DNA from: an uncultured Planctomycetia bacterium
GTDB lineage: Bacteria; Omnitrophota; Gorgyraeia; Tantalellales; Tantalellaceae
Direction: 5' to 3'
NCBI GenBank assembly: GCA_964528025.1
Contig: CAZGOZ010000001.1
Location: 4,398 to 68,397 of the forward strand
Length of the DNA stretch: 64,000 nucleotides
Position numbers and translations under genes: made by a program. Positions 9,320-26,274 of this stretch are shown in pieces; positions within the stretch are counted from its first letter, which is position 1; each line of letters begins with the position of its first letter. The notes under the pieces were generated by a model. It made no database searches, was not told the origin of the DNA, and was given only the letters and a program-made list of their open reading frames with translations.

Positions 9320-9327
9320 TTTACCGT

Positions 9328-10326
9328 CTACGCCTCCTCTTCCCCGTCATCGTCCAGCTCCAGACCAAGATGCAGCCCCATTGAGGAGAGAACGCTGTTA
9401 ATCTCATTCAGTGATTTCTTTCCGAAATTCTTATACTTGAGCATTTCTGCTTCTTTTCTTCCCACGAGATCTCCGATTGTCCGAATATTCGCATCAGCCA
9501 GACAATTTGAGCTTCTCACGGATAATTCAAGCTCGGAAATAGGTTTAGTCAATTTATTCCGGAGTTCCGTTTTCTCTCTGGATTCCTCTTCTTTTCCCTC
9601 TATCTCCTCTGTTAATTTTCCTATACCCACAAAAACATCAAGATGCCTCTGAAGCACGTTGGAGGCATATAAAAGCGCCTCTTTCGGTTCCATACTGCCA
9701 TTCGTGAATACATCAAGAATAAGCTTGTCATAGTCGGTAATATGTCCCACTCTTGTATTCTCAACATTCATATTCACTCTTTTCACCGGAGAAAACAGAG
9801 AGTCAATGGCAATCATGCCTGCCGGACTATCCCCGCTCTTGTTCCTCTCTGACGTAACATATCCCCGGCCGCGTTCAACTCTCATTTCAACTTCAAAAGT
9901 GGTGTTTTCCGTCAACGTCGCTATGTGGTGTTCCGGATTCACTATTTCAACCGTTTCATCGGTCTTGATGTCTTTCGCCTTGACCTCTCCCTTTTTCTTC
10001 ACGCTCAGAAATATCGGTTTCGGGGTCTTGAAGTGTGACCGTAGAACCAACCCTTTGAGGTTCATTATTATCTGCGACACGTCTTCATATACTCCCGGAA
10101 TAGTCGAAAATTCGTGAAGCGCCCCTTCAATCTTAACGCGCGTTACTGCCGTTCCCTCCACAGACGACAGCAAAACCCTTCGCAGTGAATTCCCTATCGT
10201 CACGCCGTATCCTTTTTCGAAAGGTTCCGCAATAACCTGCCCGTAAGTCGGAGTGTATGTTTTCTCGTCAAAGATTATTTTCTTGGGTAACTCAAAGTTC
10301 TTCAATTTCATTCCCATCGCGCGCAT
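9328..10326 (-). CDS. rpoA: DNA-directed RNA polymerase alpha subunit
   Basis: 332 aa with an alpha NTD and a CTD HhH (SVRSSNCLADANIRTIGDL). Confidence 0.9.
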   Translation of the reverse strand: MRAMGMKLKNFELPKKIIFDEKTYTPTYGQVIAEPFEKGYGVTIGNSLRRVLLSSVEGTAVTRVKIEGALHEFSTIPGVYEDVSQIIMNLKGLVLRSHFKTPKPIFLSVKKKGEVKAKDIKTDETVEIVNPEHHIATLTENTTFEVEMRVERGRGYVTSERNKSGDSPAGMIAIDSLFSPVKRVNMNVENTRVGHITDYDKLILDVFTNGSMEPKEALLYASNVLQRHLDVFVGIGKLTEEIEGKEEESREKTELRNKLTKPISELELSVRSSNCLADANIRTIGDLVGRKEAEMLKYKNFGKKSLNEINSVLSSMGLHLGLELDDDGEEEA

Positions 10327-10378
10327 CCCTCCTTCGTCGTAACCCCTGTTCTATTCAACACTTACAAAATGCAACTGA

Positions 10379-11011
10379 TTATTTTGAATATAATTCAACT
10401 ATCAGGCTTTCCTCTATAGCCATCCCGACATCTTTCTTTACCGGCAGCCGTTTTATCTCTGCGGTAAGATCTTCCGGCGAGACCTTAAGCCATTCCGGGG
10501 TTCCCCGATCTTCAAGCATCTTTGTGGTTTCCCTTATGGTTTTCAGCTGTTTTTCTTTTCCTTTTAACACTATTTTATCCCCGGTCTTCACGAGATAAGA
10601 CGGGATATTGACCTTTCGGCCGTTTACCTTCGCAAACCCGTGAGTCACAAGCTGCCGCGCCGAAGAACGACTCACGGCAAAACCGGATCTTTGAACTACA
10701 TTGTCAAGCCGCCGTTCCAGCAATTGCAGAAGCACCTCTCCCGTTGCTCCTCTTGCCCTCTCGGCCTTTTCGAAATAGTTTCTGAACTGCCGTTCAAGAA
10801 TGCCGTATACTCTTTTGGCCTTTTGTTTCTCTCTCAGCTGGGCCTCATACTCCGAGGACTTTCTCCGTTTTCTTTTCTGACCGTGCTGTCCGGGAGCGTA
10901 TTCCCTCCTGGCAAAAGCGCACTTGTCAGAAATGCACCTTACGCCCTTTAAAAACAATTTCTCGCTCTCTCTGCGGCAAAGCCGGCAGGATGCCGCCACG
11001 TTTCTTGCCAT
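10379..11011 (-). CDS. rpsD: 30S ribosomal protein S4
   Basis: [15 protein letters not shown]... zinc-type S4 with an S4 RNA-binding domain. The start overlaps the rpsK stop by 1 nt. Confidence 0.85.
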
Positions 11012-11403
11012 TATACTCTTCTCCTTTTCTTCGGCCTGCATCCATTGTGCGGAGTCGGTGTCAGGTCTATTATGGTGCGCACACTAAGGCCTTCGGATCT
11101 GATGCTTCTCACGGCGCTTTCCTTGCCCGAACCGGGCCCTCTGAGAAACACTTCAACGTCCTTTATCCCAAATGACTTCGCCTTCCTGACCGCGTCTTTT
11201 GCCGCCACGGTCGCCGCGAAGGGTGTAGATTTTCTTGATCCCTTGAACCCAACCATGCCGGGCGAACTCCAGCACAGGGTCTTCCCCGCGGTGTCCGTTA
11301 CGGTAACTATGGTATTGTTGAACGTCGCATGGACGTATACCTTTCCGGCGGATACTTTTCTTGTTATTTTCTTACGTTTTTTTGTCTTCGGCCTTTTTTG
11401 CAC
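11011..11403 (-). CDS. rpsK: 30S ribosomal protein S11
   Basis: 130 aa; conserved S11 core plus operon position. Confidence 0.9.
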
Positions 11404-11435
11404 GGTTTCCTTTCCTGTCGGGGTTCATCCCGTTA

Positions 11436-11837
11436 TTATTCACTCGGCTTTGCGGGCTTTCTGGCTGCTTTATCCTTGAAGGCCCCTACTGTTTTTTTAG
11501 GCCCCTTTTGAGTCCTGGCATTCGTTTTTGTCCTCTGCCCTCTCACAGGGAGGTTTCTTTTATGCCGCATCCCTCTGTATGTTCCGGCGCTCATCAGTCG
11601 CTTTATATTCCCCGTAACGAGACGCCTAAGGTCTCCCTCAACCTGATATTTCTCCCGGATAATATGCGTGATAGCGTTGAGTTCCTTGTCATCCAGATCC
11701 TTCGCCCTCTTATCGGGAGAAATTCCGGCCTCTTTCAATATTGCACATGAAACCGTTTTTCCTATCCCAAAAATATAAGTAAGCGCTACTTCTATTCGTT
11801 TTTCTTTCGGTATGTCAACTCCAATAATCCTCGGCAT
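11436..11837 (-). CDS. rpsM: 30S ribosomal protein S13
   Basis: [26 protein letters not shown]. The ORF extends to 11900 through the upstream repeat. Confidence 0.9.
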
Positions 11838-11859
11838 TTTTACTCCTCTTTGTATCGCA

Positions 11860-12005
11860 AAGTCCAAATAACCAATAACCAAGATACAAATAATATTCAA
11901 ATCACAATACCAAAACAGTAACTTTTTTCCTCTTGTTTGATTATTTGAATTTGGTTATTGGTCATTGTTTGGTTATTGTCTCTTGTTTCTTGTTTCTTTT
12001 AGCTC
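11860..12005. repeat. Family B AT-rich palindromic intergenic element (aataaccaa / caagaaacaag arms)
   Basis: ccaaataaccaataaccaagatacaaat ... gtttgattatttgaatttggttattggtcattgtttggttattg, an inverted repeat. A second copy lies at 15750-16020. Confidence 0.7.
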
Positions 12006-12009
12006 TCTA

Positions 12010-12123
12010 TTATCCCTGCCGCTGCTTATGCTTTGGGTCCTGGCAGATTACCCGCACAACACCTTTTCGTTTTACTATCTTGCACTTCGTGCACATTTTT
12101 CTTATACTCGGTCTTACTTTCAT
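12010..12123 (-). CDS. rpmJ: 50S ribosomal protein L36
   Basis: Hand-translated [37 protein letters not shown]. It starts 2 nt after the infA stop. Absent from the ORF track because it is under 60 aa. Confidence 0.9.
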
Positions 12124-12125
12124 GA

Positions 12126-12347
12126 TTACTTCTCTCTTTGCGTTATTCTTCCCCTGCCCAAATCATACGGGGAAAGTTCAACTGTTACCTTGTCTCCCGG
12201 AACAATACGGATAAAATACATTCGCATCTTTCCCGAAACATGCGCAAGCACTATATGTCCATTTTCCAACTTGACCCTGAACATGGCGTTCGGGAGGCAT
12301 TCCGATATCTCACCGATAGCAACAATAGCTTCTTCCTTGGGACTCAT
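12126..12347 (-). CDS. infA: Translation initiation factor IF-1
   Basis: 73 aa S1-like OB fold ([20 protein letters not shown]). Confidence 0.9.
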
Positions 12348-13087
12348 GTTATTACCTCCGCTTTCCTGCGCCCGACTTTAACCGTATCTTCAAAATGGGC
12401 CGATAACTTTCCGTCCACCGTCACGGCCGTCCATCCATCCGGCAGGACCTTAATCTTTCTGGTCCCCGCGTTTATCATCGGCTCTATCGCCAGAAGAAGC
12501 CCTTCCTTGAGCACAGGTCCCTTGCCTTTCTCTCCCCAGTTCGGTATCTCGGGAGATTCATGCAGTTTTCTTCCGATCCCGTGCCCTACAAACATTCGGA
12601 CTTCCTTGAATCCTTTTTTCTGGGCAAATACCTGAATGGCATTGGATATATCCGAAACCCTGTTGCCTTCAATGGCCTGCTCTATACCCTTCACAAGACA
12701 TTCTCTCGTGACATCAATCAGATGCCTTGCGCTATCGCTTATTTTTCCGACACTAAATGTCCGCGCCGCGTCCGTGTAATAACCGTTCTTTTTAACCCCA
12801 ACGTCAATTCCGATTATATCCCCTTCAGCAAGAACCGCCTTCCGTGAAGGCATTCCGTGGACAACAACATCGTTAATGGAAGCGCATATCGTCGCCGGAA
12901 AACCCTTGTATCCTTTGAACGCCGGTTCCGCGCCTCTTGCCAGGATTATGTCTTCAGCGCCCTTATCCAAAACTGCGGTGGACACCCCTTCGGCTATGTT
13001 CTTCTTCATCCAGGAAAATATCTCTCTTATTATTTCCCCGCCTTCACGGATTCGCCGGATTTCATTATTGTCCGTTATCACCGTCAT
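12344..13087 (-). CDS. map: Methionine aminopeptidase type I
   Basis: Metal-ligand motifs across GDIIGIDVG ... HGIGRKLHE ... LAIEP. Confidence 0.9.
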
Positions 13088-13760
13088 TTATCAGGCCTTC
13101 CTGACGAAAAAGAGCGTCTATATCATCAAAGAGCTGTTTAGCCGGGAGATCACCGTTAACTTCTCTTAAAAGACCTTTTTTCATGTAATACTCAATAAGG
13201 TCTTTCGTGCGTTCCTTATAAACTGTTAACCGATTTTTTACCGTTTCCGGTTTATCATCTTCCCGCTGTATAAGTTCTCCGCCGCAAACGTCGCATATTC
13301 CATCTTTTGTCGGAGGCATGTTAGTAACGTGATAGTTCTTATTACACTTACCGCAAACTCTCCGTCCGGAAAGCCTCTCAATAGCAACTTTCTCGGTTGT
13401 TTCAAAATACAGCACAACATTCAAAGAACGTTCTTCCTTGATCAGCGCGTCATCAAGCGATTTTGCCTGCGGAACAGTTCTCGGATATCCATCAAATATC
13501 ACGCCGCCTGCAGCGTCCGGCTTGGCCATCCGCTCTACCATGATACGCGTCACGACGGAATCGGGAACAAGCTCCCCGGAATTCATATACTTCTCGGCCT
13601 CTATCCCTGTTTCGGTGCCTTCTTTCACGGCTTCGCGCAGCATGTCGCCCGTAGAAACATGGAGCAGATGATACGCTTTTGTCAAATAGCCTGCCTGCGT
13701 TCCCTTGCCGGCGCCGGGAGGTCCCAGAAGGACCAAATTAAACTCCTTATTCACCATCAT
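13065..13760 (-). CDS. adk: Adenylate kinase (canonical copy, with zinc lid)
   Basis: GPPGAGKGT P-loop and a CGKC...CDVC lid; it sits in the spc-operon position after secY. Confidence 0.9.
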   Translation of the reverse strand: MMVNKEFNLVLLGPPGAGKGTQAGYLTKAYHLLHVSTGDMLREAVKEGTETGIEAEKYMNSGELVPDSVVTRIMVERMAKPDAAGGVIFDGYPRTVPQAKSLDDALIKEERSLNVVLYFETTEKVAIERLSGRRVCGKCNKNYHVTNMPPTKDGICDVCGGELIQREDDKPETVKNRLTVYKERTKDLIEYYMKKGLLREVNGDLPAKQLFDDIDALFRQEGLINDGDNGQ

Positions 13761-15106
13761 GCCATTCGTCCCCGTACTCGTCCTTTTTTCATGAACCCCT
13801 CATAATGCCTCGTAAGCATGTGCGATTCCACCTGTCTCATCGTGTCCAGCATAACTCCGACAACGATCAGCAGGCCGGTGCCGCCGAAAAAACTGGCAAC
13901 GAGAAAGGGTATGCCCATCTGACTGTTTATCACGCTCGGCAAAACCGCTATGACGGTAAGAAACAAGGCGCCCGGCAACGTTATGCGCGTCATTATAAAA
14001 TCAAGATATTCGGCAGTTTGCTTCCCGGGCCTTATCCCCGGCACGAACCCCCCGAACCGTTTCATGTTATTTGCCATATCAATAGGGTTAAAAGTTATTG
14101 CCGCGTAAAAATAACAGAAAAATAATATAAGAAATGAATACACCACATAATAAAGTGGTCTTCCCATCATGAGGGAACTCGCAAGTGTCTGCACTGTTCT
14201 GTGCGGAACAAAACCGGCAATCGTTGCCGGAAATAATATAATTGACTGCGCGAATATAATGGGGATAACACCGCCCTGGTTAACCCTCAAAGGTATATAT
14301 GTGCTCTGTCCGCCGTATACCCTTCTTCCGATAACCCTTTTGGCATACTGAATCGGAATCTTCCTCTGCCCCTGCGTTATGAGGACAACGGCAACAATAA
14401 CACCCACGAACATGAGCGCAAGAAAAACCAGCTTGAACGGGTCTATCTGCGCCTCACCACTGCTTCCCGGCGATGCCAATGAACCAAGCTGTATAATAGC
14501 CGCCGGCAACCTTGAAACGATACCGGCCGTAATTATCAGTGAAATACCGTTGCCGATTCCCTTTTCCTGTATCTGCTCGCCAAGCCACATGATAAACGCC
14601 GTTCCCGTCGTAAGCGTGATAACGGACAATATCCGAAAGCCCAATCCCGGATACTGGACAATCTGCATGCCCTGGAAATGCGCGGGGTTTTCCAGCCACA
14701 ACGCTATAAAAAATGACTGCACGAGAGCAAGCCCTATCGTACAGTATCTCGTATATTGAGTTATGGCCTTGCGGCCTTCCTCTCCCTGCTTCGCAAGGCG
14801 TTCCAGTGCCGGAATAACCGTCGTCAAAAGCTGTAGAATGATTGACGCGGATATATATGGCATGATACCAAGAGCAAATATGGTTAACCGCTGCATGGCA
14901 CCGCCGGAAAACATGTTCATTATGCCTAACAGCGTTCCGCCCTGTGTCTTCGCAATATTATCAAAGAACTGCGCCAACTGCTGACCGTCTATACCCGGCG
15001 TCGGAACAAAAGCGCCTATCCTGTACACGGCTATCAACCCGAGAGTGAACAGGATCTTTTTTTTCAAATCTGGAATTTTGAAAATATTTACAAAAGCGTC
15101 AAACAC
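13757..15106 (-). CDS. secY: Preprotein translocase subunit SecY
   Basis: 449 aa polytopic membrane protein with the conserved SecY N-terminus. Confidence 0.9.
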   Translation of the reverse strand: MFDAFVNIFKIPDLKKKILFTLGLIAVYRIGAFVPTPGIDGQQLAQFFDNIAKTQGGTLLGIMNMFSGGAMQRLTIFALGIMPYISASIILQLLTTVIPALERLAKQGEEGRKAITQYTRYCTIGLALVQSFFIALWLENPAHFQGMQIVQYPGLGFRILSVITLTTGTAFIMWLGEQIQEKGIGNGISLIITAGIVSRLPAAIIQLGSLASPGSSGEAQIDPFKLVFLALMFVGVIVAVVLITQGQRKIPIQYAKRVIGRRVYGGQSTYIPLRVNQGGVIPIIFAQSIILFPATIAGFVPHRTVQTLASSLMMGRPLYYVVYSFLILFFCYFYAAITFNPIDMANNMKRFGGFVPGIRPGKQTAEYLDFIMTRITLPGALFLTVIAVLPSVINSQMGIPFLVASFFGGTGLLIVVGVMLDTMRQVESHMLTRHYEGFMKKGRVRGRMA

Positions 15107-15149
15107 CCATTACTCCTATCTCAAATCTCAAAAACAACAGATGACCAAT

Positions 15150-15285
15150 CGTTAAATTCAAATGACAAAGCACAAAATCCAAAATAAATCCAAAACCTCA
15201 AATCCAAATAACTAAACATTTGTTCCTTATGAGTTTTGTCATTTGTGCTCATTTTGTGCTTTGAATTTTGTCATTTGACATTATT
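15150..15285. repeat. Family A AT-rich palindromic element (CAAAAT-like repeats, then their inverse ATTTTG)
   Basis: caaatgacaaagcacaaaatccaaaataaatccaaaac ... ttttgtcatttgtgctcattttgtgctttgaattttgtcatttgac. Copies also at 20575-20745 and 24625-24745. Confidence 0.7.
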
Positions 15286-15735
15286 TATTGCTTTACCGCC
15301 GGCTTCTTCAATGGCTTTTTTCGCCGCCAGTGAAAACGCATCGGCCTTCACGGTTATCGCCTTGTCTAATCTTCCTTTTGCCAGAACCTTGAGCTGTAAT
15401 CCTTTTTTTCGGATAATCCTCTTCTCAAGCAAAAAAGCGTTATCAATAACCGCTCCGTCCACGATCGCCTCGACCCTCTGCAGAGTGCCTGTGTTTATAA
15501 CATTTTTTGCCCGTCTAAACTTGTTCGTAAACCCTCTCTTGGGAATGCGTCTCACCAGAGGCATCTGTCCACCCTCAAACCCGGGATTGTAAACGCCGCC
15601 GCCGGATCGCGATTTCGCCCCTTTGTGCCCGCGGCCACTGGTCTTTCCGCGCCCTGAACCTATACCGCGTCCTTTGCGTTTACCCGGCTTTTTTATTCCC
15701 CGCGGTCTCTTGATGTCTTCTATTCTAAGTGCCAT
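15271..15735 (-). CDS. rplO: 50S ribosomal protein L15
   Basis: 154 aa Gly/Arg-rich L15. Confidence 0.85.
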   Translation of the reverse strand: MALRIEDIKRPRGIKKPGKRKGRGIGSGRGKTSGRGHKGAKSRSGGGVYNPGFEGGQMPLVRRIPKRGFTNKFRRAKNVINTGTLQRVEAIVDGAVIDNAFLLEKRIIRKKGLQLKVLAKGRLDKAITVKADAFSLAAKKAIEEAGGKAINNVK

Positions 15736-15749
15736 CTATCCACCCTTTT

Positions 15750-16020
15750 TAATGCAATGTTTAAATAACCAATAATCAAGAAACAAGATACAAATAAATT
15801 CCAATAATCAATAACCAAACATAATACTGTCAACAACTATTCAAAATTTGCCTGGGACATTGTCATTCTGAGGCCTCGAAGAGGCCGAAAAATCCAATCC
15901 TCTAGATCCTTCGTCGCTTCGCTCCTCAGGATGACGGCTTGGCTTCGTTTCTTGTTTGATTATTTGAATTTGGTTATTGATCATTGTTTGTCTCTTGTCT
16001 CTTGTTTCTTGTATCTTTAT
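15750..16020. repeat. Family B palindromic element carrying a nested GC-rich hairpin insert (15846-15950)
   Basis: Outer arms aataaccaataatcaagaaacaagatacaaat / cttgtttgattatttgaatttggttattgatcattg. The inner insert is gtcattctgaggcctcgaagaggccg...cctcaggatgac. Its 3' arm encodes the C-terminal tail of the S5 ORF. Confidence 0.65.
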
Positions 16021-16609
16021 CTATTATCTTGTCTCTTCTTCTCTCTGACCGCAGCTGTTCAAGTCCACACAGAGCGGCTTTAACAACATTTATGGCGTTT
16101 CTTGATCCGAGACTTTTCGTGAGAATATTTTTTATGCCTGCCGCCTCACAAACCGCTCTCACGGGTCCACCTGCGATTACCCCTGTTCCCGGCGAGGCCG
16201 GCTTCAAAAGTACCCTCGATGCCTTGTACTTGCCTATCACTTCATGCGGTATGGTATCGCCCTTTAGATTAATCGAAACAAGGTTCTTTTTCGCCTTTAC
16301 CACGCCCTTTTTTATTGATTCCACTACTTCATTGGATTTTCCGAATCCCACACCGACGCGTCCTTTACCATCGCCCGTAACAACAAGAGCGCTGAAAGAA
16401 AAATTTCTGCCGCCCTTTACGACCTTTGATACCCTGTTTATCTTCACGACGTGTTCAGGGAATTCCTTGTCGGTTTTTTTCCCAAAACCGCCCCCGCCTC
16501 TTGAGGGCCTTCTTGCCGGTCTATTTTTATTTTCGCGGCCCGCGTCTCCGGGGGTTACAACAGGTGTTTCTCCGGGTGTTACGACGGGTTTTTCTTCTTT
16601 GTTCTGCAT
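15974..16609 (-). CDS. rpsE: 30S ribosomal protein S5 with N- and C-terminal extensions
   Basis: S5 core ([25 protein letters not shown]). The N-terminus contains a [15 protein letters not shown] direct repeat. The C-terminal 20 aa are encoded by the family B repeat. Confidence 0.85.
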
Positions 16610-16629
16610 CTATCCTCCTGGCGAAAAGC

Positions 16630-16992
16630 CTAAAATTCCAACCCTTTTTTTCTTGCCGCTTCGGCAACAGCCTTCACAACCCCGTGATACTGATATCCCG
16701 ATCTATCAAACACTATTTTTTTTATGCCCTTTTTTGTAGCGATGTCCGCTATTTTTTCGCCCAGAATTTCTGCGAAATGCGCGTTCTTTCGCGTATACTG
16801 ACCGGGCTTGTCCTTTGAGGCCAAAACGGCGGTAGATACGCCGCATAGCGTTTTGCTATTCACGTCATCCACTACCTGAACATAAATGTTCCGATTGCTC
16901 TTATGCACACACATCCGGGGTTTTTCAGGCGTACCGGAAATTTTTTTCCGTATTGATTTTTTTCGTCTTTTTCTTTGTTTCGCCGCATCCAT
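16630..16992 (-). CDS. rplR: 50S ribosomal protein L18
   Basis: 120 aa; operon position and conserved C-terminus. Confidence 0.85.
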   Translation of the reverse strand: MDAAKQRKRRKKSIRKKISGTPEKPRMCVHKSNRNIYVQVVDDVNSKTLCGVSTAVLASKDKPGQYTRKNAHFAEILGEKIADIATKKGIKKIVFDRSGYQYHGVVKAVAEAARKKGLEF

Positions 16993-17010
16993 TTTTACAC
17001 CGCAACTTTC

Positions 17011-17547
17011 TTAAGCCACACTCTTACCCTGTTTCTGTCTCACATATTCGCCTTCATACCTGATTCCTTTACCCTTATATGGTTCGGGAGGATAAAACTG
17101 GCGTATCTTAGCCGCAACTTCACCGACCTTCTGTTTGTCTACCCCTTTGACCGAAATCTCTGTGGGGCTCACGATTTCCACCTTTACATCTTCCGGCGGA
17201 ATATAATTTATACTGTGCGAAAAACCCAAATCCAGAACCAGCGTTTTACCCTTCATCTGCGCTTTATATCCTACGCCCTGAATCTTAAGCTTCTTCTGAA
17301 AAGCAGTTTTAAGCCCCGTAACCATATTCTGAATAAGGCTTCTCGTCGTGCCATGCAGCGCCCTCATCGTCCGCGAATCGGAAGGCCTGACAATAATGAC
17401 CTGATTATCCTTGAGCTCTGCGATAAACCCCTCCGGTATGGTGTGTTCAAGGGATTTTCCGCCTCCCTCAACCTTTACCAGGGTTTCTTTTATTTCAATC
17501 TTTATCCCGGCCGGAATATCAATCGGCCGTCTTCCTACTCTTGACAT
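17011..17547 (-). CDS. rplF: 50S ribosomal protein L6
   Basis: 178 aa; MSRVGRRPIDIPAGIKIEI. Confidence 0.9.
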   Translation of the reverse strand: MSRVGRRPIDIPAGIKIEIKETLVKVEGGGKSLEHTIPEGFIAELKDNQVIIVRPSDSRTMRALHGTTRSLIQNMVTGLKTAFQKKLKIQGVGYKAQMKGKTLVLDLGFSHSINYIPPEDVKVEIVSPTEISVKGVDKQKVGEVAAKIRQFYPPEPYKGKGIRYEGEYVRQKQGKSVA

Positions 17548-17564
17548 TTTTATTTACTCCTTAT

Positions 17565-17635
17565 GTCATTCCCGCGCAAGCGGGAATCTATCTGGTCCTT
17601 TTCATTCTGGATCCCCGCTTCCGCGGGGATGACAG
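17565..17635. repeat. Two family E GC-rich hairpins in the rplF-rpsH spacer
   Basis: gtcattcccgcgcaagcgggaatc and tggatccccgcttccgcggggatgaca. Same family at 3224-3250, 44786-44813 and 52378-52478. Confidence 0.7.
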
Positions 17636-17643
17636 AGCCTTTG

Positions 17644-18042
17644 TTACCATATCTTACAGATAATCTCTCCGCCGAGGCCAAGCTCACGCGCTTGGCTATC
17701 GGTCAAAAGACCTTTGCTTGTAGAAAGAACTGAAATTCCCACACCACCCATCACGCTTTTTACTTTTTTTGCCGAAAGATACGTGCGGCGGCCCGGTTTT
17801 GAGATCCTATTCAGTGTATTCATCACCGGGGTTCCGTCCTCAAGACTCTTCAGATACACCTTTATTTTCCCCTGCCGGGTATCTTCAATAACCTTGTAGT
17901 TCTCGATAAAACCCTCTTTTTTCATTATCTCAACGATTCCCTCTATAATACCGGATCGCTTTATGATAACATCTTTTTTGCCGGCCATGATGGCATTTCT
18001 CATCACTGTCAGCTGGTCTGCAATTAAATCCGTGACACTCAT
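17644..18042 (-). CDS. rpsH: 30S ribosomal protein S8
   Basis: 132 aa; MSVTDLIADQLTVMRNA. Confidence 0.9.
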   Translation of the reverse strand: MSVTDLIADQLTVMRNAIMAGKKDVIIKRSGIIEGIVEIMKKEGFIENYKVIEDTRQGKIKVYLKSLEDGTPVMNTLNRISKPGRRTYLSAKKVKSVMGGVGISVLSTSKGLLTDSQARELGLGGEIICKIW

Positions 18043-18105
18043 GTATTACCTTTCCTGATTATTTCTCAACCGTTTTCTCCGGAGCTCCGCTTTCCTCGCG
18101 GAACT

Positions 18106-18291
18106 CTACCAACTTGCCTTTTTAACACCCGGGATATCACCGCGCGAAGCCAATTCCCGGAAACAGATACGGCATAATTTAAACCGCTTCAGATATCCCT
18201 TCTTTCTTCCGCAGATCTGGCATCTGGTGATGACTCTCGTTGAGAATTTTGGTTTTCTTTTTGATTTTTCTATAAGCGCTTTCTTAGCCAT
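18106..18291 (-). CDS. rpsN: 30S ribosomal protein S14 type Z (zinc-binding, 61 aa)
   Basis: [23 protein letters not shown]. Confidence 0.9.
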
Positions 18292-18428
18292 ATGATTTTC
18301 TTTCCCATTGCGACACTGAATGCACTGAATTTTGCAGAGAACACTGGATTCAGTGCCGTCTATCCCCTTCAGTATCCTCTGTGTTGCATTCTTCAGTGTC
18401 CTCTGTCTTTTTCTCAGTGTTCTCTGTG
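18292..18428. repeat. Family C leader element (cactgaat palindromes)
   Basis: cgacactgaatgcactgaattttgcagagaacactggattcagtgccgtctatccccttcagtatcctctgtgttgcattcttcagtgtcctctgt. Homologous to 29279-29339 and 37775-37931. Confidence 0.7.
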
Positions 18429-18995
18429 TTACCGCTTCTCAAAAGGCATTCCGAACCCCTCAAGCAACGCCTTCGATTCTTCTTTAGCACAGGCAGTCAT
18501 AACAAAACAGATATCCATACCGTGAGTTACCGGCACCTTGTCCAGCTCCAGCTCGGGGAATATCGTCTGTTCTTTTATCCCTAATGTATAATTTCCCTGC
18601 TGATCAAAAGATGTCACGGATACACCGCGAAAATCCCGTATTCTCGGAATAACAAAATTTATCAGCCGGTCCAAAAATTCATACATGCGAACCCTTCGCA
18701 ATGTTGTTTTATATCCAACGGGGGCTCCTATACGCACCTTAAAATTGGAAATCGCCTTTTTGGTTCTTCTCAGAGAAGGTTTCTGCCCGGTCAAAGACGC
18801 AATTTCATCTCTCAACGGCTCTACCAAATCTTTCTGCTGGGACATCTCGCCCATTCCTACGTTAACCACAATCTTTTCGAGACGCGGAACGTTCATTCTG
18901 TTCTTGTATCCGAATTTCTTCATCAACGCAGGAACAATATCCTTTTCGTATAAATCTTTAAGCCGTGCTGTGTTTGTTTTTTTATTATCTGTCAT
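18429..18995 (-). CDS. rplE: 50S ribosomal protein L5
   Basis: 188 aa. Confidence 0.9.
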
Positions 18996-18996
18996 T

Positions 18997-19308
18997 TTAT
19001 AACGCCTCTTTACATTTCTTGCAAAAACGGGTCTTACTGCCGTCCTTTAGTATGTCTTTGCCTGTCCTGGTGGGGCGGTTACAGCCCTTGCAGAGAATGG
19101 CCAGATTCGAAACATGAATAGAGGCCTCTCTATGCATGATACCGCCTTCCGAGTCCTGCTTCGTCTTTTTGAGGTGTTTTATCGCAAAATTCACCCCTTG
19201 CACGATAGCGCGCTTTTTTTCAGGGTTAATTCTCAACACTTTTCCGGTTTTTCCTTTATCTTTACCGGCCATAACTTTTACTGTATCGTTTTTTATTATA
19301 TGTCCCAT
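18997..19308 (-). CDS. rplX: 50S ribosomal protein L24 with C-terminal CxxC...CxxC zinc-ribbon-like tail
   Basis: KOW motif (VMAGKDKGKTGKV) and a tail CKGCNRPTRTG...RFCKKCKEAL. Confidence 0.85.
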   Translation of the reverse strand: MGHIIKNDTVKVMAGKDKGKTGKVLRINPEKKRAIVQGVNFAIKHLKKTKQDSEGGIMHREASIHVSNLAILCKGCNRPTRTGKDILKDGSKTRFCKKCKEAL

Positions 19309-19320
19309 AACATTCCTCGT

Positions 19321-19689
19321 TTAAATAACTTCCGGCGCCAGAGATACAATCTTCATGAATTTCTTCCCGCGAAGTTCGCGAGCGACCGGTCCAAACACGC
19401 GCGTTCCGCGCGGATTTCCGTCTTTATCAATTACTACTACGGCGTTGTGATCAAATTTAAGAACCGTCCCATCCTTGCGCAATATCGGATAGGCCGTTCG
19501 CACGACCACGGCGCGAACCACTTCGCCTTTTTTAACCTCCGCGGCGGGCGTAGACTCCTTGATATTACACGTAATCACGTCGCCTATCGTTGCCATGTAT
19601 TTTCCGGATCTCCCGATAACACCTATCATAGAGGCTTTTTTAGCGCCGCTGTTATCAGCAACATCCAACCTGCTGCCCATTATAATCAT
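19321..19689 (-). CDS. rplN: 50S ribosomal protein L14
   Basis: 122 aa. Confidence 0.9.
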
Positions 19690-19695
19690 AGCCGA

Positions 19696-19962
19696 TCAGC
19701 CTCTCTGCTTTTTTTCCAGAATTTCCACGAGGCGCCAGGCCTTGTTCTTGGAAATCGGACGCGTTTCGATTATCCGGACCATGTCCCCGGCTTTTGATCT
19801 ATTTTCCGCATCATGCGCCTTAACCTTCATACGCTGTTTTATGAATTTTCCGTATATGGGATGTCTCTTACGAGTTTCCCATCCAACCGTGATGCTCTTA
19901 TCCATGCTCGCGCTTATAACCGTGCCGGTTATTTCTTTTTTATTGGGTCTAGTGCCCTTCAC
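19696..19962 (-). CDS. rpsQ: 30S ribosomal protein S17
   Basis: 88 aa. Confidence 0.85.
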   Translation of the reverse strand: MKGTRPNKKEITGTVISASMDKSITVGWETRKRHPIYGKFIKQRMKVKAHDAENRSKAGDMVRIIETRPISKNKAWRLVEILEKKQRG

Positions 19963-20146
19963 TATTCTTCTCCTTCAAAATGGTGTAACATCTGGCTATA
20001 TCGCGCCTCAGGGAACAGAAACGGTTCGGTCTCTCTATCCTGCCGGTCGTAATCTCCGCCCTCAGTTTGAACAATTGCTCTTTTATATCCAAAAGCTTGT
20101 GTTCAACCTCGGGTACGGTCATGTTCCTTATTTCGCTCGCTTTCAA
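19949..20146 (-). CDS. rpmC: 50S ribosomal protein L29
   Basis: 65 aa. Confidence 0.8.
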
Positions 20147-20559
20147 GCCCGTCCTCCTCTTGATACAAATTTTGTCTTCATCGGAAGCTTATGCGCCGAT
20201 AACCGAAAGGCCTCCCTGGCCATGTCATGCGGAACACCTTCCACTTCAAAAATAATCCGCCCTTTTTTCACGGGGGCAACCCATCCAACGGGAGAGCCCT
20301 TCCCCTTGCCCATACGTGTTTCCGCGGCCTGTTTCGTTACGGGCTTATCGGGAAATACCCGAATCCACAACTTGCCGGCTCTTCCGGTCTCCCTCATGAG
20401 AGCCACTCTTGCCGCCTCTATCTGTTTGTCGGTTAACCATGCGGTTGCCAAAGCCTTGAGCCCGAATTCTCCAAAATTAAGTTTTGAAGACAAACTCGTG
20501 CCTTTGCGCCGGCCCCTCTGTTGTTTCCTGAATTTTACCCTCTTGGGCATTAAAGCCAT
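20143..20559 (-). CDS. rplP: 50S ribosomal protein L16
   Basis: [20 protein letters not shown]. The ORF continues upstream to 20658 through the family A repeat; start chosen at the internal Met. Confidence 0.85.
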
Positions 20560-20574
20560 AATGTCGCCCCTTAA

Positions 20575-20745
20575 ACAATAATCAAGATACAATAAAATAA
20601 ATGTCAAATGACAAAATTCAAAGCACAAAATAAGCACAAATAACAAAATCCAAAACACAAATAAAAGTTTTGTTATTTGAATTTAAGATTTTGGATTTAT
20701 TTTGGATTTTGTGCTTTGTCATTTGAATTTTGACGCGTTATCTTC
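20575..20745. repeat. Family A palindromic element (largest copy) between rpsC and rplP
   Basis: gtcaaatgacaaaattcaaagcacaaaataagcacaaataacaaaatccaaaacacaaataaaag / ttttgttatttgaatttaagattttggatttattttggattttgtgctttgtcatttgaattttgac. Confidence 0.75.
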
Positions 20746-20783
20746 CTTTTTTCACTCTTTTTTCCAGAACCTCAGTAACGCCT

Positions 20784-21467
20784 TCACCTTTGTTTCTTCT
20801 TTTTAACGTCCGTTTCTTCCGGCTCTACGGGAGCATCCAACTTGTCACCTTTGTAGATCCACACCTTCACCCCGATTATTCCGTATGTGGTGCGGGCTTC
20901 ACTGAACCCGTAATCTATGACGGCCCTTATTGTCTGTAGCGGGATCTTGCCCCACTTATAACCTTCAACTCTTGCTATTTCCGCGCCCCCCAGACGTCCG
21001 GAACACTTAATCTTTATGCCTTTCCCACCGGCGTCTTTGTGCGCCTGTATGGTTTTTTTCATCGCACGCCGGAAAGCGATCCTTTTCACGAGCTGCAGTG
21101 CGATATTATCAGAGACGATCTTCGCGTCCAGTCCGGGATTTGCCACCTCTTTGATATCAATAAAAAGTTTTGCCCGATCCCCTACGATATTCTGTACGGA
21201 TTCTTTAAGCAGCTCGATCTGAGCACCCTTCCGCCCTATCAGTATTCCCGGCCGTCCGGAAAAAATAGCAACACGCACGAGGTTACGCGTGCGCATTATA
21301 TCTACATGAGATATCAGAGCCGCGAACATCTCTTTTTCTATTAATTTGCGTATTCGCGTGTCCTGCAGCAGTTTGTCCGCGAACTCTTCTTTCGTGGCGT
21401 ACCAACGACTGTTCCAGTCACGTCCCGCTCCCAGACGAAAACTTATCGGATTGACCTTCTGCCCCAT
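20784..21467 (-). CDS. rpsC: 30S ribosomal protein S3
   Basis: 227 aa with a KH domain. Confidence 0.9.
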   Translation of the reverse strand: MGQKVNPISFRLGAGRDWNSRWYATKEEFADKLLQDTRIRKLIEKEMFAALISHVDIMRTRNLVRVAIFSGRPGILIGRKGAQIELLKESVQNIVGDRAKLFIDIKEVANPGLDAKIVSDNIALQLVKRIAFRRAMKKTIQAHKDAGGKGIKIKCSGRLGGAEIARVEGYKWGKIPLQTIRAVIDYGFSEARTTYGIIGVKVWIYKGDKLDAPVEPEETDVKKKKQR

Positions 21468-21468
21468 G

Positions 21469-21852
21469 CTATTTACTCCCTGACTTTATTTTTTTGTTTT
21501 TCTTAGCAGGCACAACTGCCTTATCCAGTTCAACCCGAATATGCGTTGTCCTGTGCCTTATAGGCGCGGCGCGTCCCATTGTCGCTGCTCTGAAACGTTT
21601 AAGCATGTAGGCGCCGTCTGCCATTATTGTTGAGATCATCACGTCTTTAGCAAGTAGTTTCTCCTGCCGCTTAAAATTTGCGTTGGCAAAAGCCGAGTCC
21701 AAGACCTTCCTTATAGGCACGCAGGCACTCTTCGGGGTATTATCCAGAATAGCTCTCGCCATTTCAATCGTTTTGCCCCTTACCAGGTCAACGACCAGTC
21801 TTGTCTTACGTGTCGATATCCTGACGTATCTGGCTTCCGCTTTTGCAATCAT
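21469..21852 (-). CDS. rplV: 50S ribosomal protein L22
   Basis: 127 aa. Confidence 0.85.
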   Translation of the reverse strand: MIAKAEARYVRISTRKTRLVVDLVRGKTIEMARAILDNTPKSACVPIRKVLDSAFANANFKRQEKLLAKDVMISTIMADGAYMLKRFRAATMGRAAPIRHRTTHIRVELDKAVVPAKKNKKIKSGSK

Positions 21853-22136
21853 TATGTTTTCTCCAATGAAACTTTCGTCGCTGCTCCGTGGCTGCGAAAC
21901 TTACGCGTCGCCGCGAACTCACCCAATTTATGACCTACCATATTCTCCGTTATAAACAGAGCGATGAAGGTCTTTCCGTTATGCACGGAAATTGTCAAAC
22001 CTACGAAATCAGGTAATACAACAGACCTTCTGGACCAGGTCTTTATCGGCTTCTTGCTGCCGGTTTCCGCCCTTTTTCGCACCTTTTTCAAGAGACTCTC
22101 GTCCACAAAAGGGCCTTTTTTGGTAGAACGCGACAT
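21852..22136 (-). CDS. rpsS: 30S ribosomal protein S19
   Basis: 94 aa. Confidence 0.9.
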
Positions 22137-22139
22137 ATC

Positions 22140-22964
22140 TTACTTCCTCCGTTTGATTATCTTACTGCTTGACGCTTTCTTCTTTTTCCGCGTCTTTAAA
22201 CCTTTGGTAATCTTACCCCACGGCGTAACCGGATGTCTTCCGCCGGAGGATTTTCCTTCACCGCCACCCATGGGGTGGTCAACCGGGTTTTTTACCACGG
22301 CTCTGGATTTCGGCCGTATTCCACGATGTCTTGATCTACCGGCTTTTCCTAAAGAGATATTTTCATGTTCGGCGTTTCCCACTTTTCCGATTGAAGCGTA
22401 ACATCCCTCGTTAACCAGCCGGACTTCCCCGCTCGGCATGCGCAGGTGTATGTTTTTTCCGTCCTTTGCGTCAACCATGGCGCCATTGCCCGCTGATCTG
22501 GCTATCTTCGCGCCGCAACCCGGTTCCATTTCAATACAATAAACTTCCGCCCCAAGAGGAACATTTTTGAGCGGCATTGAATTCCCTATTTCTATCTTCG
22601 CCGTGGGACCGCACTGAATTGTGCCGCCGACCTTGATCTGCGCAGGCGCGATTACATACATCAGTTGCCCATCCTCATACTTCACTAGCGCGATACGCGC
22701 CGAACGGTTCGGATCATACTCCACCGCCGCAACAACTCCCTGAATGCCTTTTTTCATATAACGAAAATCTACGAGACGATACCGTCTCTTGTGACCGCCC
22801 CCTATGCCTCTCGAGGTTATACGGCCACGATTATTTCTTCCGCCCGTTTTCCGCAGCGCTCGCGTGAGAGATCTTTCCGGACGTTTTTTTGTGATATCAC
22901 TAAAATCAGAAACGTTCCCGCCGCGGGTGCCGGGTGTCATTGCTTTATATTTTCTTATACCCAT
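22140..22964 (-). CDS. rplB: 50S ribosomal protein L2
   Basis: 274 aa. Confidence 0.9.
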   Translation of the reverse strand: MGIRKYKAMTPGTRGGNVSDFSDITKKRPERSLTRALRKTGGRNNRGRITSRGIGGGHKRRYRLVDFRYMKKGIQGVVAAVEYDPNRSARIALVKYEDGQLMYVIAPAQIKVGGTIQCGPTAKIEIGNSMPLKNVPLGAEVYCIEMEPGCGAKIARSAGNGAMVDAKDGKNIHLRMPSGEVRLVNEGCYASIGKVGNAEHENISLGKAGRSRHRGIRPKSRAVVKNPVDHPMGGGEGKSSGGRHPVTPWGKITKGLKTRKKKKASSSKIIKRRK

Positions 22965-22967
22965 AAG

Positions 22968-23246
22968 TTATGTTACCTCTATCGTGCTTCCGGATTTCAG
23001 CGTCACAATGGCCTTTTTCCACGAGGCCGTCATACCCTCGTGAAGCCTTACCCGTCTTCTTTTTCCTTTGATGTTCATCACGTGGACCTTATCCACTTTA
23101 ACGTTGTAAATCTCCTCCACAGCTTTTCTTATCTCCACCTTGTTGGATCGTTTATCAACCTTGAATAGGTGCTTGTTCTGCGAACCCATCCCTGACCCTT
23201 TTTCGGTCCGTAATATATTTTTTATGACATCGTGTGTCGTTCTCAT
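22968..23246 (-). CDS. rplW: 50S ribosomal protein L23
   Basis: 92 aa. Confidence 0.85.
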   Translation of the reverse strand: MRTTHDVIKNILRTEKGSGMGSQNKHLFKVDKRSNKVEIRKAVEEIYNVKVDKVHVMNIKGKRRRVRLHEGMTASWKKAIVTLKSGSTIEVT

Positions 23247-23902
23247 TTTAATTTTTCACCCAAGTTTTCAAGCGCCGTTTTTTCCACCAAAATACACCCG
23301 TTCAACAAAACATCTCTCACATTTATATTCTTTCCCTCTTTCAGGCTCACCCGTTTCAGGTTGCCTGAAGAACGTTTTACATCCTTGGTTATGGCCTCAA
23401 CCACAACAAGCACTTTTCCTTCCACCTTCAGATTATCAAGAATCGCCTTGAACGCACTGGTCTTGGGCTTATCCAGCTTGATTTCTACCACCGCTTTCAC
23501 CATATTTTCGGACAGTCTGGCGTTCAGACCGGATATCAACGCTTTTTTCAGCGCTTTTTTCGGCATGGAATACGAAAAATCACGCGGTCTCGGACCAAAT
23601 GCCACGCCGCCGTGACGCCAGACAGGATTTCTGGAGGACCCGACCCTGGCTCGACCGGTACCTTTCTGTTTCCATGGTTTTGCTCCGCCGCCCGAAACCT
23701 CGCTCCTCGTTTTAGACGAAGCAGTTCCTCGGCGGCAATTCGCTTCATACATCTTCTTCGCTTCATAAAGAAGCGTTTGATTAACACGACCGTCAAACAC
23801 CTCTTCATCCAGCTGTATTTTATCAACGGCCTTGCCATCCAGACCAAAAACATCCAGCCTTGTATTAAACTCTTTTATTTTCCGCTCTTTATTTCTTTTC
23901 AT
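23243..23902 (-). CDS. rplD: 50S ribosomal protein L4
   Basis: Start set at internal [12 protein letters not shown]. The longer ORF to 24085 would overlap rplC by about 200 nt. Confidence 0.8.
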   Translation of the reverse strand: MKRNKERKIKEFNTRLDVFGLDGKAVDKIQLDEEVFDGRVNQTLLYEAKKMYEANCRRGTASSKTRSEVSGGGAKPWKQKGTGRARVGSSRNPVWRHGGVAFGPRPRDFSYSMPKKALKKALISGLNARLSENMVKAVVEIKLDKPKTSAFKAILDNLKVEGKVLVVVEAITKDVKRSSGNLKRVSLKEGKNINVRDVLLNGCILVEKTALENLGEKLK

Positions 23903-24605
23903 CGTTCGGCTTTTCTGCTGTTTTTTCTTCTGTTTTTCCCTCGGCCTTTTCTTCTTTCTTCTCGCGCGCCGCAAGGGTTTTCTTTTTAGCGTACCGAAGA
24001 ATAAGATACGTGCCGTTCGCTCCGGGAATAGCGCCTTTAACCGCAATCGTGTTATTGGCGGCATCCGTCTCAACAATCTGGACATTCTGAATTGTAGTTC
24101 GCACGTTCCCCATATGACCCGGCATGCTTTGTCCTTTAAAAACGCGCGATGGATAAGAACTGGCGCCTATGGAACCCGGCGCGCGGTGCGACATTGATCC
24201 ATGCGACTCCGGTCCACCGTTCCAGTTGTGTCTTTTCATGCCACCCTGAAAACCTTTTCCCTTTGAAAGGCCGGTGATATCCAGGAAATCGCCTTTTTGA
24301 AAAATCCCGAGCGTTACCTCATCTCCGACTTTTACTTCCAAATCTTCGTCACACCTTATTTCCCGGACAAATCCCTTCGGTTTCAGATTACGGGCCTTGA
24401 GATCTTCTCTCTGGGGTTTTTTAAGACGTTTTTCCTTTACGTCTTCATACCCCATACAAACGGCATTATATCCGTCTTTCTTCGGGGTCTTTACTGCCTG
24501 CACGGAACAGGGGCCCGCTTTCACGACCGTAACAGGCGTTCTTCTGCCGTCTTCCCCGAATATCTGTGTCATGCCTATTTTTTTTCCAAGTATTCCCGGA
24601 ACCAT
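23889..24605 (-). CDS. rplC: 50S ribosomal protein L3 with Lys/Glu-rich C-terminal tail
   Basis: [16 protein letters not shown]. Confidence 0.9.
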
Positions 24606-24624
24606 TCAATTACCCCACTATTTT

Positions 24625-24745
24625 AAGTACAAATATCTTCTTAAAATTCAAATGACAAAGCTCAAAATTCAAAATAAATCCAAAATCTTAAATTCCAATG
24701 CCCAAACTTTTATTTTGTGCTTTGAATTTTGACATTTGTCATTAT
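24625..24745. repeat. Family A palindromic element between rpsJ and rplC
   Basis: aattcaaatgacaaagctcaaaattcaaaataaatccaaaat ... ttttgtgctttgaattttgacatttgtcatt. Confidence 0.7.
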
Positions 24746-25059
24746 TTTATCTCTACATCTACACCGGCCGGAAGATCCAGCTTGCGCAAAGAGTCTATCG
24801 TCCTTGCTGTGGAATCCACGATATCCAGAAGCCTTTTATGCGTTTTGAGTTCAAACTGCTCCCGTGATTTTTTGTCCACATTCGGCGACCTTAAAACAGT
24901 ATAAAGCTCACGTCTGGTCGGAATCGGCACCGGACCCACCACGGTTGCACCGGTTTTCTTGACCGTCTCCACTATTTCTGCCATTGACACGTCAAGAAGC
25001 TTATGGTCAAACGACTTCAAGCGTAAACGTATCCTTGCTGTTTTTATTTTCTTAGCCAT
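24742..25059 (-). CDS. rpsJ: 30S ribosomal protein S10
   Basis: 105 aa; [20 protein letters not shown]. Confidence 0.9.
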
Positions 25060-25077: not shown

Positions 25078-26274
25078 TCAGGCAATCACTTCCGAGACTA
25101 CTCCCGCTCCTACAGTGCGGCCGCCTTCACGTATCGCAAATCTTAACTCTTTTTCCAACGCTACCGGCGATATGAGTTCCACTTCTATCGTGACGTTATC
25201 TCCGGGCATTACCATCTCTACCCCTTCGGGTAGCTTTGCCACTCCCGTTACATCCGTTGTCCGGATATAAAACTGCGGCCGGTATCCGTTAAAAAACGGC
25301 GTGTGCCGCCCGCCTTCTTCCTTGCTCAATATATATACTTCCGCTTTGAATTTTGTATGCGGTGTGATCGTTCCCGGCGCCGCAAGCACCTGTCCTCTTT
25401 CCAGGTCTGTCTTCTCTATGCCGCGCAAGAGCACTCCCACGTTATCTCCCGCTTGACCTGAATCCAACAGCTTACGGAACATCTCTATTCCCGTTACCGT
25501 CGTCTTCCTCGTCGCGCCGAGACCCACTATCTCAATCTCTTCGCCCACTTTTACCTGGCCCCGTTCTATCCTTCCGGTGCCCACTGTTCCTCTTCCCGTT
25601 ATGCTGAACACGTCTTCAACGGGCATCAGAAACGGTTTGTCTATATCTCGCACCGGCTGAGGTATAAACGTGTCCACCGCGTCCATAAGCTCGCCTATAA
25701 ACTTGCAATCCTCACTGTCCAACGCGCCTTTCGCTTCCATCGCCTTTAACGCGCTGCCCTTGATTATCGGCGTATCATCGCCCGGGAAATCATATTTGCT
25801 TAAGAGTTCCCTTACCTCAAGTTCTACGAGGTCCAGAAGCTCTTTGTCGTCTACCATGTCCACCTTGTTCATGAACACAACCAGCGCCGGCACGTTTACC
25901 TGTCTGGCCAGTAATATGTGCTCTCGTGTCTGCGGCATCGGACCGTCAGCCGCCGATACCACCAATATCGCTCCGTCCATCTGGGCCGCTCCCGTGATCA
26001 TGTTCTTGATGTAATCCGCGTGCCCGGGACAATCTATATGCGCATAATGTCTTTTATCCGTCTCGTATTCCACGTGCGCTACCGCGATTGTTATGCCTCG
26101 TTCCTTCTCTTCGGGCGCCTTATCAATCGTATCAAACGCGCGTATTTCCGCCTGCCCCTTGTTCGCCAGGTACATCGTGATCGCGGCTGTGAGTGTCGTC
26201 TTGCCGTGGTCTACGTGCCCTATCGTTCCAATGTTCAAATGCGGCTTTGTTCTCTCAAATTTTTTCTTGGCCAT
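25078..26274 (-). CDS. tuf: Elongation factor Tu (copy 1)
   Basis: 398 aa with a [10 protein letters not shown]-loop. Protein-identical to the 40707-41903 copy. Confidence 0.95.

Follow-up and report, generated by a model that had tools for sequence, protein, structure and literature searches.

What are long AT-rich palindromes doing between the genes of a highly conserved, tightly packed ribosomal operon? The question is raised by a stretch of 64,000 nt (the window, by which we mean the whole of the DNA analyzed; contig CAZGOZ010000001.1 of assembly GCA_964528025.1, positions 4,398 to 68,397) that is deposited under the name of an uncultured Planctomycetia bacterium, and that the L5 protein and the DNA place in Candidatus Omnitrophota. 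From 8.7 to 28.4 kb, every gene of the window is on the minus strand; together these genes make up the usual fusA-tuf-S10-spc-alpha ribosomal super-operon ending with rpoA and the L17 gene, and five imperfect palindromes sit in its intercistronic spacers, one per spacer (S10-L3, S3-L16, S5-L15, L15-secY and L36-S13). A first, sequence-only reading of this DNA had sorted the palindromes into two families, A and B, and had seen in them either long hairpins in polycistronic mRNA that would be candidate RNase III processing sites, or miniature inverted-repeat elements tolerated by the operon. On the evidence assembled here, the five sequences probably belong to two related families of palindromic repeats that are small, AT-rich and non-coding, and that would be non-autonomous selfish elements of Omnitrophota resembling transposable elements of the miniature inverted-repeat kind (MITEs) or repetitive extragenic palindromic (REP) sequences.

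Physically, all five palindromes are present, within about 10-20 nt of where they had first been placed (our boundaries come from nhmmer and blastn), and they are indeed AT-rich, with a spacer G+C content of 0.26-0.37 versus about 0.47 (0.46-0.48) in the flanking kilobases. In gene order, element A3 (24642-24747) occupies the S10-L3 spacer and is short, with about three heptads of one arm missing; A2 (20597-20732) occupies the S3-L16 spacer and is inverted relative to A1 and A3; B2 (15754-16023) occupies the S5-L15 spacer and holds a foreign element in its loop; A1 (15151-15286) occupies the L15-secY spacer; and B1 (11859-12007) occupies the L36-S13 spacer, beginning directly after the L36 stop and ending about 20 nt before the S13 start. 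Inverted-repeat detection delimited the same elements at 15141-15281 (A1), 20636-20719 (A2), 24649-24743 (A3), 11867-11959 (B1) and 15777-16011 (B2). Family-A elements measure 105-136 bp, B1 149 bp and B2 270 bp, the last including a nested element of 74 bp (15862-15935), which is the GC-rich palindrome already noticed in the sequence-only reading (GTCATTCTGAGG...CCTCAGGATGAC); this insert has the architecture of the family-C type described below, and no second copy of it was found in the sequences searched. A1 and A2 are 88% identical, as are A2 and A3 in opposite orientation, A1 and A3 are 78% identical, and B1 and B2 share 93% identity in their right arms. A B-like arm fragment (caataatcaagatacaa..., 20572-20600) adjoins A2, and the S3-L16 spacer is thus a composite. 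The other 51 kb of the window contain no further A or B copy.

Architecturally, the arms of both families proved to be degenerate heptamer arrays, made of CAAAnnn units in the 5' arm and of nnnTTTG units in the 3' arm, a feature common to A and B that had been missed in the first reading, together with the inversion of A2 and the presence of at least three more palindrome families. For the ten arms together, the autocorrelation shows peaks at lags of 7 (z = 10) and 14 (z = 6), and in an alignment of 43 family-A copies CAAA/TTTG is fixed at each seventh base, with the three intervening bases variable. The termini of family A are conserved (TCAAATGACAAAGC ... GTCATTTGA, with TTAATG to the left and CATTAA to the right), the centers vary, and the conserved part of the copies comprises only about 30 nt at each end. 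Terminal inverted repeats of the form TTAATGTCAAATGACAAAGC ... GCTTTG..TTTTGTCATTTGACATTAA are kept across the 43 aligned copies, and the only open reading frames (ORFs) within A or B elements are the read-in tails of neighboring genes, leaving the elements with no coding capacity of their own, and their lengths stay below the limit of about 300-500 bp; all three traits are those of MITEs. In about three quarters of the family-A copies a TA stands just outside ATGTCAAATG...CATTTGACAT, flanks that are not separable from an extension of the inverted repeat because TA is itself palindromic. The arms are displaced by one heptad relative to each other (GCA-ATT against ATT-GCA), for which reason the folds contain staggered 7-nt bulges, and orthologous copies at two other loci (L013 and L019) differ by an alignment gap of 7-8 nt, about one heptad. 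Judged by the heptamer-array architecture that they share, families A and B appear to be related.

Both families recur outside the window, where a search for further copies in related genomes had been proposed as a check. The 20-base core of family A was found in more than 91 stretches of genomes representing GTDB species, mostly metagenome-assembled genomes (MAGs) of Omnitrophota, and a profile search of the fetched loci (L-numbered here) recovered at least 52 full-length family-A copies, in either orientation and beside all kinds of genes, with minimum counts per MAG of 9 (JBDRNI01), 13 (UBA6233) and 10 (JBDRKE01). Family B is present at no fewer than seven loci; it occurs in three unrelated contigs of metagenomes and twice more in the sister genome introduced below. 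Such dispersal of many copies over unrelated loci, where the neighbors of A and B elements include arg genes, a GH57-like gene and moxR, is again MITE-like. Palindromes with the same 30-nt termini (AATGTCAAATGACAAAGCNCAAAAT...) were also detected in contigs labelled Desulfobacteraceae, Dehalococcoidia, Schekmanbacteria and Planctomycetales (L035, positions 2666-2799, from a Desulfobacteraceae MAG, and L074, L077, L076, L033 and L058), at loci with a G+C content of 0.27-0.62; in L035, the adjoining MoxR gene has named close homologues only in Desulfobacterota. The densest cluster that we observed is in L086 (UBA6233 contig_13829, 8001-16000), with five family-A copies in 8 kb, in separate short spacers between co-directional genes. 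Locus L097 (JGI Ga0208325_1000010) has genes that cannot be aligned to those of the window and matches it in short intergenic repeats only (window 51826-51930, 4105-4179, 52055-52092 and 11867-11914, at 92-100% identity). As this is a different organism, several repeat families are therefore common to different organisms.

The origin of the elements was examined by comparison with the closest species representative, the MAG MEGAHIT-group-1.881 (the sister genome), whose contig JBDRNI010000040.1 is collinear with the window and about 94% identical to it in coding DNA. Of the five window elements, the sister genome has only A1 and A3. Where the window has B1 in the L36-S13 spacer, the sister has a palindrome of another family, E (GTGATCAGTGATCTG...); where the window has B2 between S5 and L15, the sister has family D (CACAGAGGACACTGA...); the S3-L16 spacer holds A2 in the window and the AT-rich family F (AAATTCTAAGCACTAAATCCGAAAT...) in the sister; and the S8-L6 spacer holds family C in the window (17565-17636, GTCATCCCCGCGGAAGCGGGGATCC...GAATGAC) and again family F in the sister. 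At L5-S14, a family-D element of the window (18300-18420, CACAGAGAACACTGA...) stands against an exactly empty site in the sister, where GCGGTAACA runs directly into GGGAAAG. The sister genome, for its part, has one more family-A copy, which lies inside a family-E element at the site that corresponds to window 5920-6003, where the window has neither. Its A1 orthologue has an internal 18-nt deletion that is common to two other copies in the sister genome, a pattern suggestive of conversion or in-place replacement. Outside the ribosomal operon, none of the long spacers could be aligned between the two genomes (window 3950-4188, 2954-3289 and 5917-6001 versus L089), and each has its own set of palindromes.

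Four further relatives, the next in closeness, whose L5 proteins are 76-81% identical to that of the window, served as outgroups. Their spacers are compact, with 6-7 nt at S3-L16, -11 to 42 nt at S5-L15, 9-24 nt at L15-secY and 8-25 nt at L5-S14, and S10 to L17 take up 15.4-15.6 kb in them, compared with 16.35 kb of the window. It follows that the elements are additions specific to this lineage. Differences in presence and absence at orthologous sites, a further property of MITEs, are seen in the extra family-A copy of the sister, in the family-D element of the window against its empty counterpart, and in the empty spacers of the outgroups. A more distant Omnitrophota operon (L055) has family A at L2-S19, an A/F-like element at L22-S3 and large GC-rich composites at L23-L2 and S19-L22, all of them junctions other than those occupied in the window. 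Had the palindromes, which one of the two original proposals held to be candidate RNase III processing sites, been conserved in that role, their orthologous spacers should have been kept with compensatory changes; they are replaced wholesale or absent (A2, B1 and B2 give way to unrelated families in the sister), which argues for mobile insertions and against conserved processing sites. The other proposal, of tolerated miniature inverted-repeat elements, is upheld by the copies elsewhere in the lineage and beyond it, by the outgroup operons that are without them, and by a relative at about 94% identity that has other families or nothing in their place.

The insertions reach into the ends of neighboring proteins. 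In the four relatives, S5 ends in ...LRLKRRG and a stop; in the window it reads ...LRSERRR and continues for 19 residues encoded by an arm of B2 (19 codons plus stop, 15974-16033, minus strand), so the suspicion that the S5 tail is element-derived was justified, and in the sister it reads ...LQFKRKG followed by 8 residues from family D. In L15, the final codons and the TGA stop (15271-15273) lie inside the A1 terminus AATGTCAAATGA, and the TAA stop of S10 (24742-24744) lies inside the A3 terminus, with the S10 protein unchanged. In the sister genome, the tail of L3 is replaced by STSSVIPAKAGIQNGKE and a stop, contributed by a family-C copy (L040 774-845) that is 92% identical to the one at S8-L6 of the window. 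By comparison, the extension of the L16 frame that had been ascribed to A2 is an ORF artefact, as the true start is MALMPKRVK and the frame upstream of it is merely open. Gene calls made on identical sequence (L001, L002 and L003 versus window 20143-20658 and 11436-11900) report L16 with 164, 138 or 173 amino acids and S13 with 133 or 148, and they differ because open frames run into the elements.

Among other explanations, the one that survives best, though we consider it unlikely, is that these spacers need some long RNA hairpin of whatever family, as an RNase III site, a 3' stem that protects the upstream cistron or a means of bringing stop and start codon together, and that selection keeps it there. 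The predicted mRNA-sense folds of all five elements are far better than those of dinucleotide shuffles (z = -4.2 for A1, -6.9 for A2, -4.0 for A3, -2.8 for B1 and -7.2 for B2); 18-45 nt, including the ribosome-binding site, are left free before each start codon; different families occupy the same four junctions in the window and its sister (P = 0.0014, taking junctions as equally permissive); and RNase III cleaves the transcripts of Correia elements at their inverted repeats in Neisseria (PMC10969869). A general need for a hairpin is, however, hard to reconcile with the compact S3-L16, S5-L15 and L15-secY spacers of the four relatives, with the different junctions occupied in L055, with the absence of the L5-S14 element from the sister, and with the same families standing beside the arg, GH57-like and moxR genes. 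Nor is there a folding advantage of the sense strand. The window, in which all four of the elements tested fold better in the mRNA sense, would have suggested one, but among 45 copies whose gene direction is known, the better fold belongs to the sense strand in 25 and to the antisense strand in 20 (Wilcoxon p = 0.96), and RNA-level selection via strand asymmetry was dropped on these counts. Hairpin cleavage may still occur as a by-product.

Other signs of regulation within the elements were sought with similar outcomes. Relative to the genes, 17 of the 45 copies are oriented with them and 28 against. Placement between co-directional genes (45 of 46 copies) says nothing about a preference for operon interiors, since co-directional pairs make up 93% of all pairs of genes at these loci. 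RNAalifold, applied to 43 family-A copies, kept only 11 pairs with almost no covariation, an uninformative result from an alignment that is of low complexity and in which the arms are conserved in sequence. Rfam, including its ribosomal-protein leaders, had no match to any element: at gathering score the window matches are tRNAs only, and in E-value mode the segment 11700-25100 gave two chance-level matches, to a plant microRNA and a trypanosome small nucleolar RNA. No terminator-like site was found inside any element. The promoter-like pattern TTGACA-18-GATTAT matches the sense strand once each in A2 and B2; a promoter function was rejected, the regional count of 20 matches being below the shuffle mean of 22.7.

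Considerably less probable again is that the heptamer arrays are the functional part and the palindromy is secondary, the arrays serving as binding sites, in DNA or RNA, for a host protein (a nucleoid protein, or an RNA binder of the S1, Csp or Csr type) or as recombination sites recognized in folded single strands, akin to the attC sites of integrons. The 7-nt periodicity of all ten arms speaks for it, as do the CAAA/TTTG that is fixed every seventh base between three variable ones, the one-heptad gap between L013 and L019, and the staggered bulges kept in the folds. No candidate protein is linked to the elements, however, their position and orientation relative to genes are inconsistent, and the outgroups are without arrays. 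The attC comparison is close in outline, since attC sites, too, are imperfect palindromes of 57-141 nt that separate co-directional genes and combine conserved ends and conserved unpaired bases with a variable center. Yet the attC cores (RYYYAAC / GTTRRRY) occur only sporadically here and at one end, their R''/R' elements are not conserved, and no integrase was seen in the loci examined. Identity with attC was therefore rejected: GTTAAAT-like sequences are confined to a minority of the copies, where they stand at just one end, orientations are mixed (17 to 28), and the flanking genes are core genes rather than cassettes.

That low-complexity AT-rich sequence was misjoined into the operon during assembly or binning, a thought prompted by the metagenomic source and by repeats being the usual cause of misassembly, is next to impossible, as the gene order is canonical and all five elements are base-for-base identical in three other assemblies (JGI 3300022553, JGI 3300013089 and ENA ERZ27245787) made from different samples with different pipelines. 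Over the 20-kb region compared, the few mismatches all fall outside the elements. Across the four assemblies including the window, the elements are fixed in this population, with no polymorphism seen within it.

From a mechanistic perspective, we posit that the palindromes, taken as selfish non-autonomous repeats, entered the ribosomal operon recently, in this lineage only and at the DNA level. The comparisons show that such repeats have been inserted into spacers, have nested in one another's loops, have changed by heptads and have been replaced, and turnover of this kind is probably fast. They would persist where they fall between a stop codon and the next ribosome-binding site, or where they clip the last codons of a gene and supply a new stop. 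Because their ends carry TAA or TGA, a clipping insertion would cost its host just a short new tail, which would make the elements nearly neutral passengers. RNA polymerase presumably reads through them, given that they have no terminator features and that essential genes lie downstream, and in the transcript each would form a long, imperfect hairpin, at the base of which the upstream stop comes to lie near the downstream ribosome-binding site. As for a mover, an IS630/Tc1-like enzyme acting in trans would be compatible with the conserved ends and their TA flanks, and duplication-free insertion of family D together with landing in loops would suit an enzyme that targets single strands or hairpins; the element end sequence by which any mobilizing gene could be matched is TAATGTCAAATGACAAAGC. 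Two candidate sources were rejected. Arm pairs lying 250-4000 bp apart, which might have marked an autonomous parent, enclose a GH57-like gene and argC and not transposases, and a phage or plasmid vector found no matches in IMG/VR or PLSDB.

Several observations weigh against the elements being mobile and selfish. No transposase or other mobilizing gene was present in the loci searched, the family-D insertion at L5-S14, judged by the empty site of the sister, has no target duplication, and among the loci compared there was no clean empty site for family A or B (in the pairs L013/L019 and L044/L092, both members are filled). No two copies are identical, and there is thus no sign of a very recent burst. 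Finally, beyond the two junctions with inherited elements, the window and the sister are each occupied at five more, and four of the five coincide; the probability given above holds if 27 junctions are equally open, and it becomes 0.017 for 15 and 0.10 for 10. This coincidence does not fit simple neutrality. It could arise if few junctions are permissive, or if new elements land in residents and then replace them, an account supported by the nested copies; that the hairpin is useful at the shared junctions is the candidate to which we would give little weight. With neither a clear target duplication nor a transposase found in these loci, A and B are candidate MITEs.

At least three further palindrome families fill other spacers of the same operons. 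Family C follows the pattern GTCATCCCCGCGGAAGCGGGGATCC...GATTCCCGC..GCGGGAATGAC, and fragments of it were observed in the window at 52378-52477, 3224-3250 and 44783-44811. Family D has, in addition to the L5-S14 copy, a second copy at 37809-37910 that is 92% identical to it, in the spacer 37775-37931 downstream of rpoB/rpoC, and a third at 29287-29375 that is 79% identical, in the spacer upstream of a large rpo gene. Nesting is recurrent: the family-B copies in L096 and L097 have a GC-rich foreign element in the loop, as B2 does, and the sister genome has family A inside family E. In L097, it is a family-C copy that sits in the loop of a family-B copy.

Some features of the window stand apart from these families. 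At 60368-60527, between two minus-strand genes, a near-perfect palindrome of 26 nt (GTAGGTCACCCTAAAGGGTGACCTAC) is present four times in tandem with a period of 43 nt, a cluster resembling REP sequences and bacterial interspersed mosaic elements (BIMEs) in a spacer with a fold z of -11, and most window spacers of at least 60 nt fold far better than shuffles. The region 47000-52000 has a lower G+C content (0.37-0.42), with a 3.8-kb ORF at 45914-49762 and long gene-free spacers at 49763-50528 and 50706-51436, and may be foreign DNA. The gene rpmD (L30) is absent between S5 and L15 in the window (15736-15973), in the sister genome and in four other Omnitrophota operons (L098-L101). Two tuf (EF-Tu) genes of the same length are present (25078-26274 and 40707-41903), the start of the second being 100% identical to the first over at least 689 bp.

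Searches of the literature on the terminal sequence and on Omnitrophota repeats found no description of these families. We would best file A and B as new families with the behavior of the Correia, enterobacterial repetitive intergenic consensus (ERIC) and Rickettsia palindromic element (RPE) repeats, that is, as co-transcribed palindromes in either orientation that differ between species and add peptide tails. Correia elements (NEMIS) are likewise multi-copy palindromes of about 100-200 bp with TA ends, often co-transcribed as mRNA hairpins, and may contain promoter-like hexamers comparable to those of A2 and B2. They have no sequence similarity to A and B, however, whose arms are degenerate heptamer arrays, and they are confined to one genus, whereas A and B span many Omnitrophota lineages and at least one other phylum. 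ERIC sequences, or intergenic repeat units (IRU), are imperfect palindromes of about 127 bp in transcribed intergenic regions of enterobacteria, in either orientation, and can affect mRNA decay (PMC10969869). Their presence within operons and their variable occurrence between related species are shared with A and B; they differ in having a normal G+C content and a highly conserved sequence, where A and B are AT-rich with heptad periodicity and, over a coding divergence of about 6%, have given way to other families at the same site. RPEs are palindromic repeats of about 150 bp inside reading frames of Rickettsia that add peptide segments to housekeeping proteins (PMC10969869). Comparable tails are carried here by S5 and L15 of the window, and by L3 and S5 of the sister. 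RPEs are in frame within genes, whereas the present elements alter the extreme C-terminus only, bring a stop, and are mostly intergenic.

Other known repeats are less close. REP sequences are 20-40 nt long, GC-rich and tagged by GTAG or CGTC (PMC3733652). Together with BIMEs and REPINs, they resemble A and B in being extragenic palindromes between co-directional genes that are found in clusters and composites; they themselves have no target duplication and are thought to stabilize upstream mRNA; A and B differ from them in length (105-270 nt), in G+C content (0.26-0.37) and in ends that bear no such tag. No gene for the REP-associated tyrosine transposase (RAYT) was seen in the loci examined, and no genome-wide search aimed at RAYT was made. 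TAACTGA heptamer repeats are found in ribosomal-protein operons of Beggiatoaceae, Cyanobacteria and Bacteroidetes, spread patchily across phyla with no evident vector (PMC4679880). They too are intergenic arrays of a 7-nt unit, but in them a single exact heptamer recurs in direct tandem, mostly a short way upstream of a start codon, whereas A and B have degenerate heptamers (only CAAA is fixed) in two inverted arrays with unique conserved termini, nearer the upstream stop. Comparable intergenic arrays of heptamer units are the short tandemly repeated repetitive (STRR) sequences of cyanobacteria.

More broadly, and with rather low expectation of being right, we suggest that A, B, E and F might form one undescribed class, 'inverted heptamer arrays', whose arms gain and lose whole heptads, whose termini of about 30 nt are kept across phyla (Omnitrophota and Desulfobacterota and, by label, Dehalococcoidia, Schekmanbacteria and Planctomycetota), and whose members preferentially replace each other at the same operon junctions. 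If this were true, it would imply a dedicated mobilizing or templating enzyme aimed at hairpins already in place, and perhaps also that the host makes use of the hairpins in polycistronic mRNA. For mobile-element research, the elements offer well-defined families with heptad-built arms, a cross-phylum distribution and no known transposase; for RNA biology, they provide operons that differ naturally in having or lacking long intercistronic hairpins, in which processing and translational coupling could be studied. For the annotation of Omnitrophota and other uncultured lineages, they explain spurious ORFs, over-extended calls (L16 with 164 or 173 amino acids in two assemblies in place of 138, and S13 with 148) and odd protein tails. 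For the organism itself, the finding would mean that a highly conserved, tightly packed operon can absorb nearly 1 kb of selfish palindromic DNA, and that such DNA can rewrite the C-termini of S5, L15 and L3 within about 6% sequence divergence.

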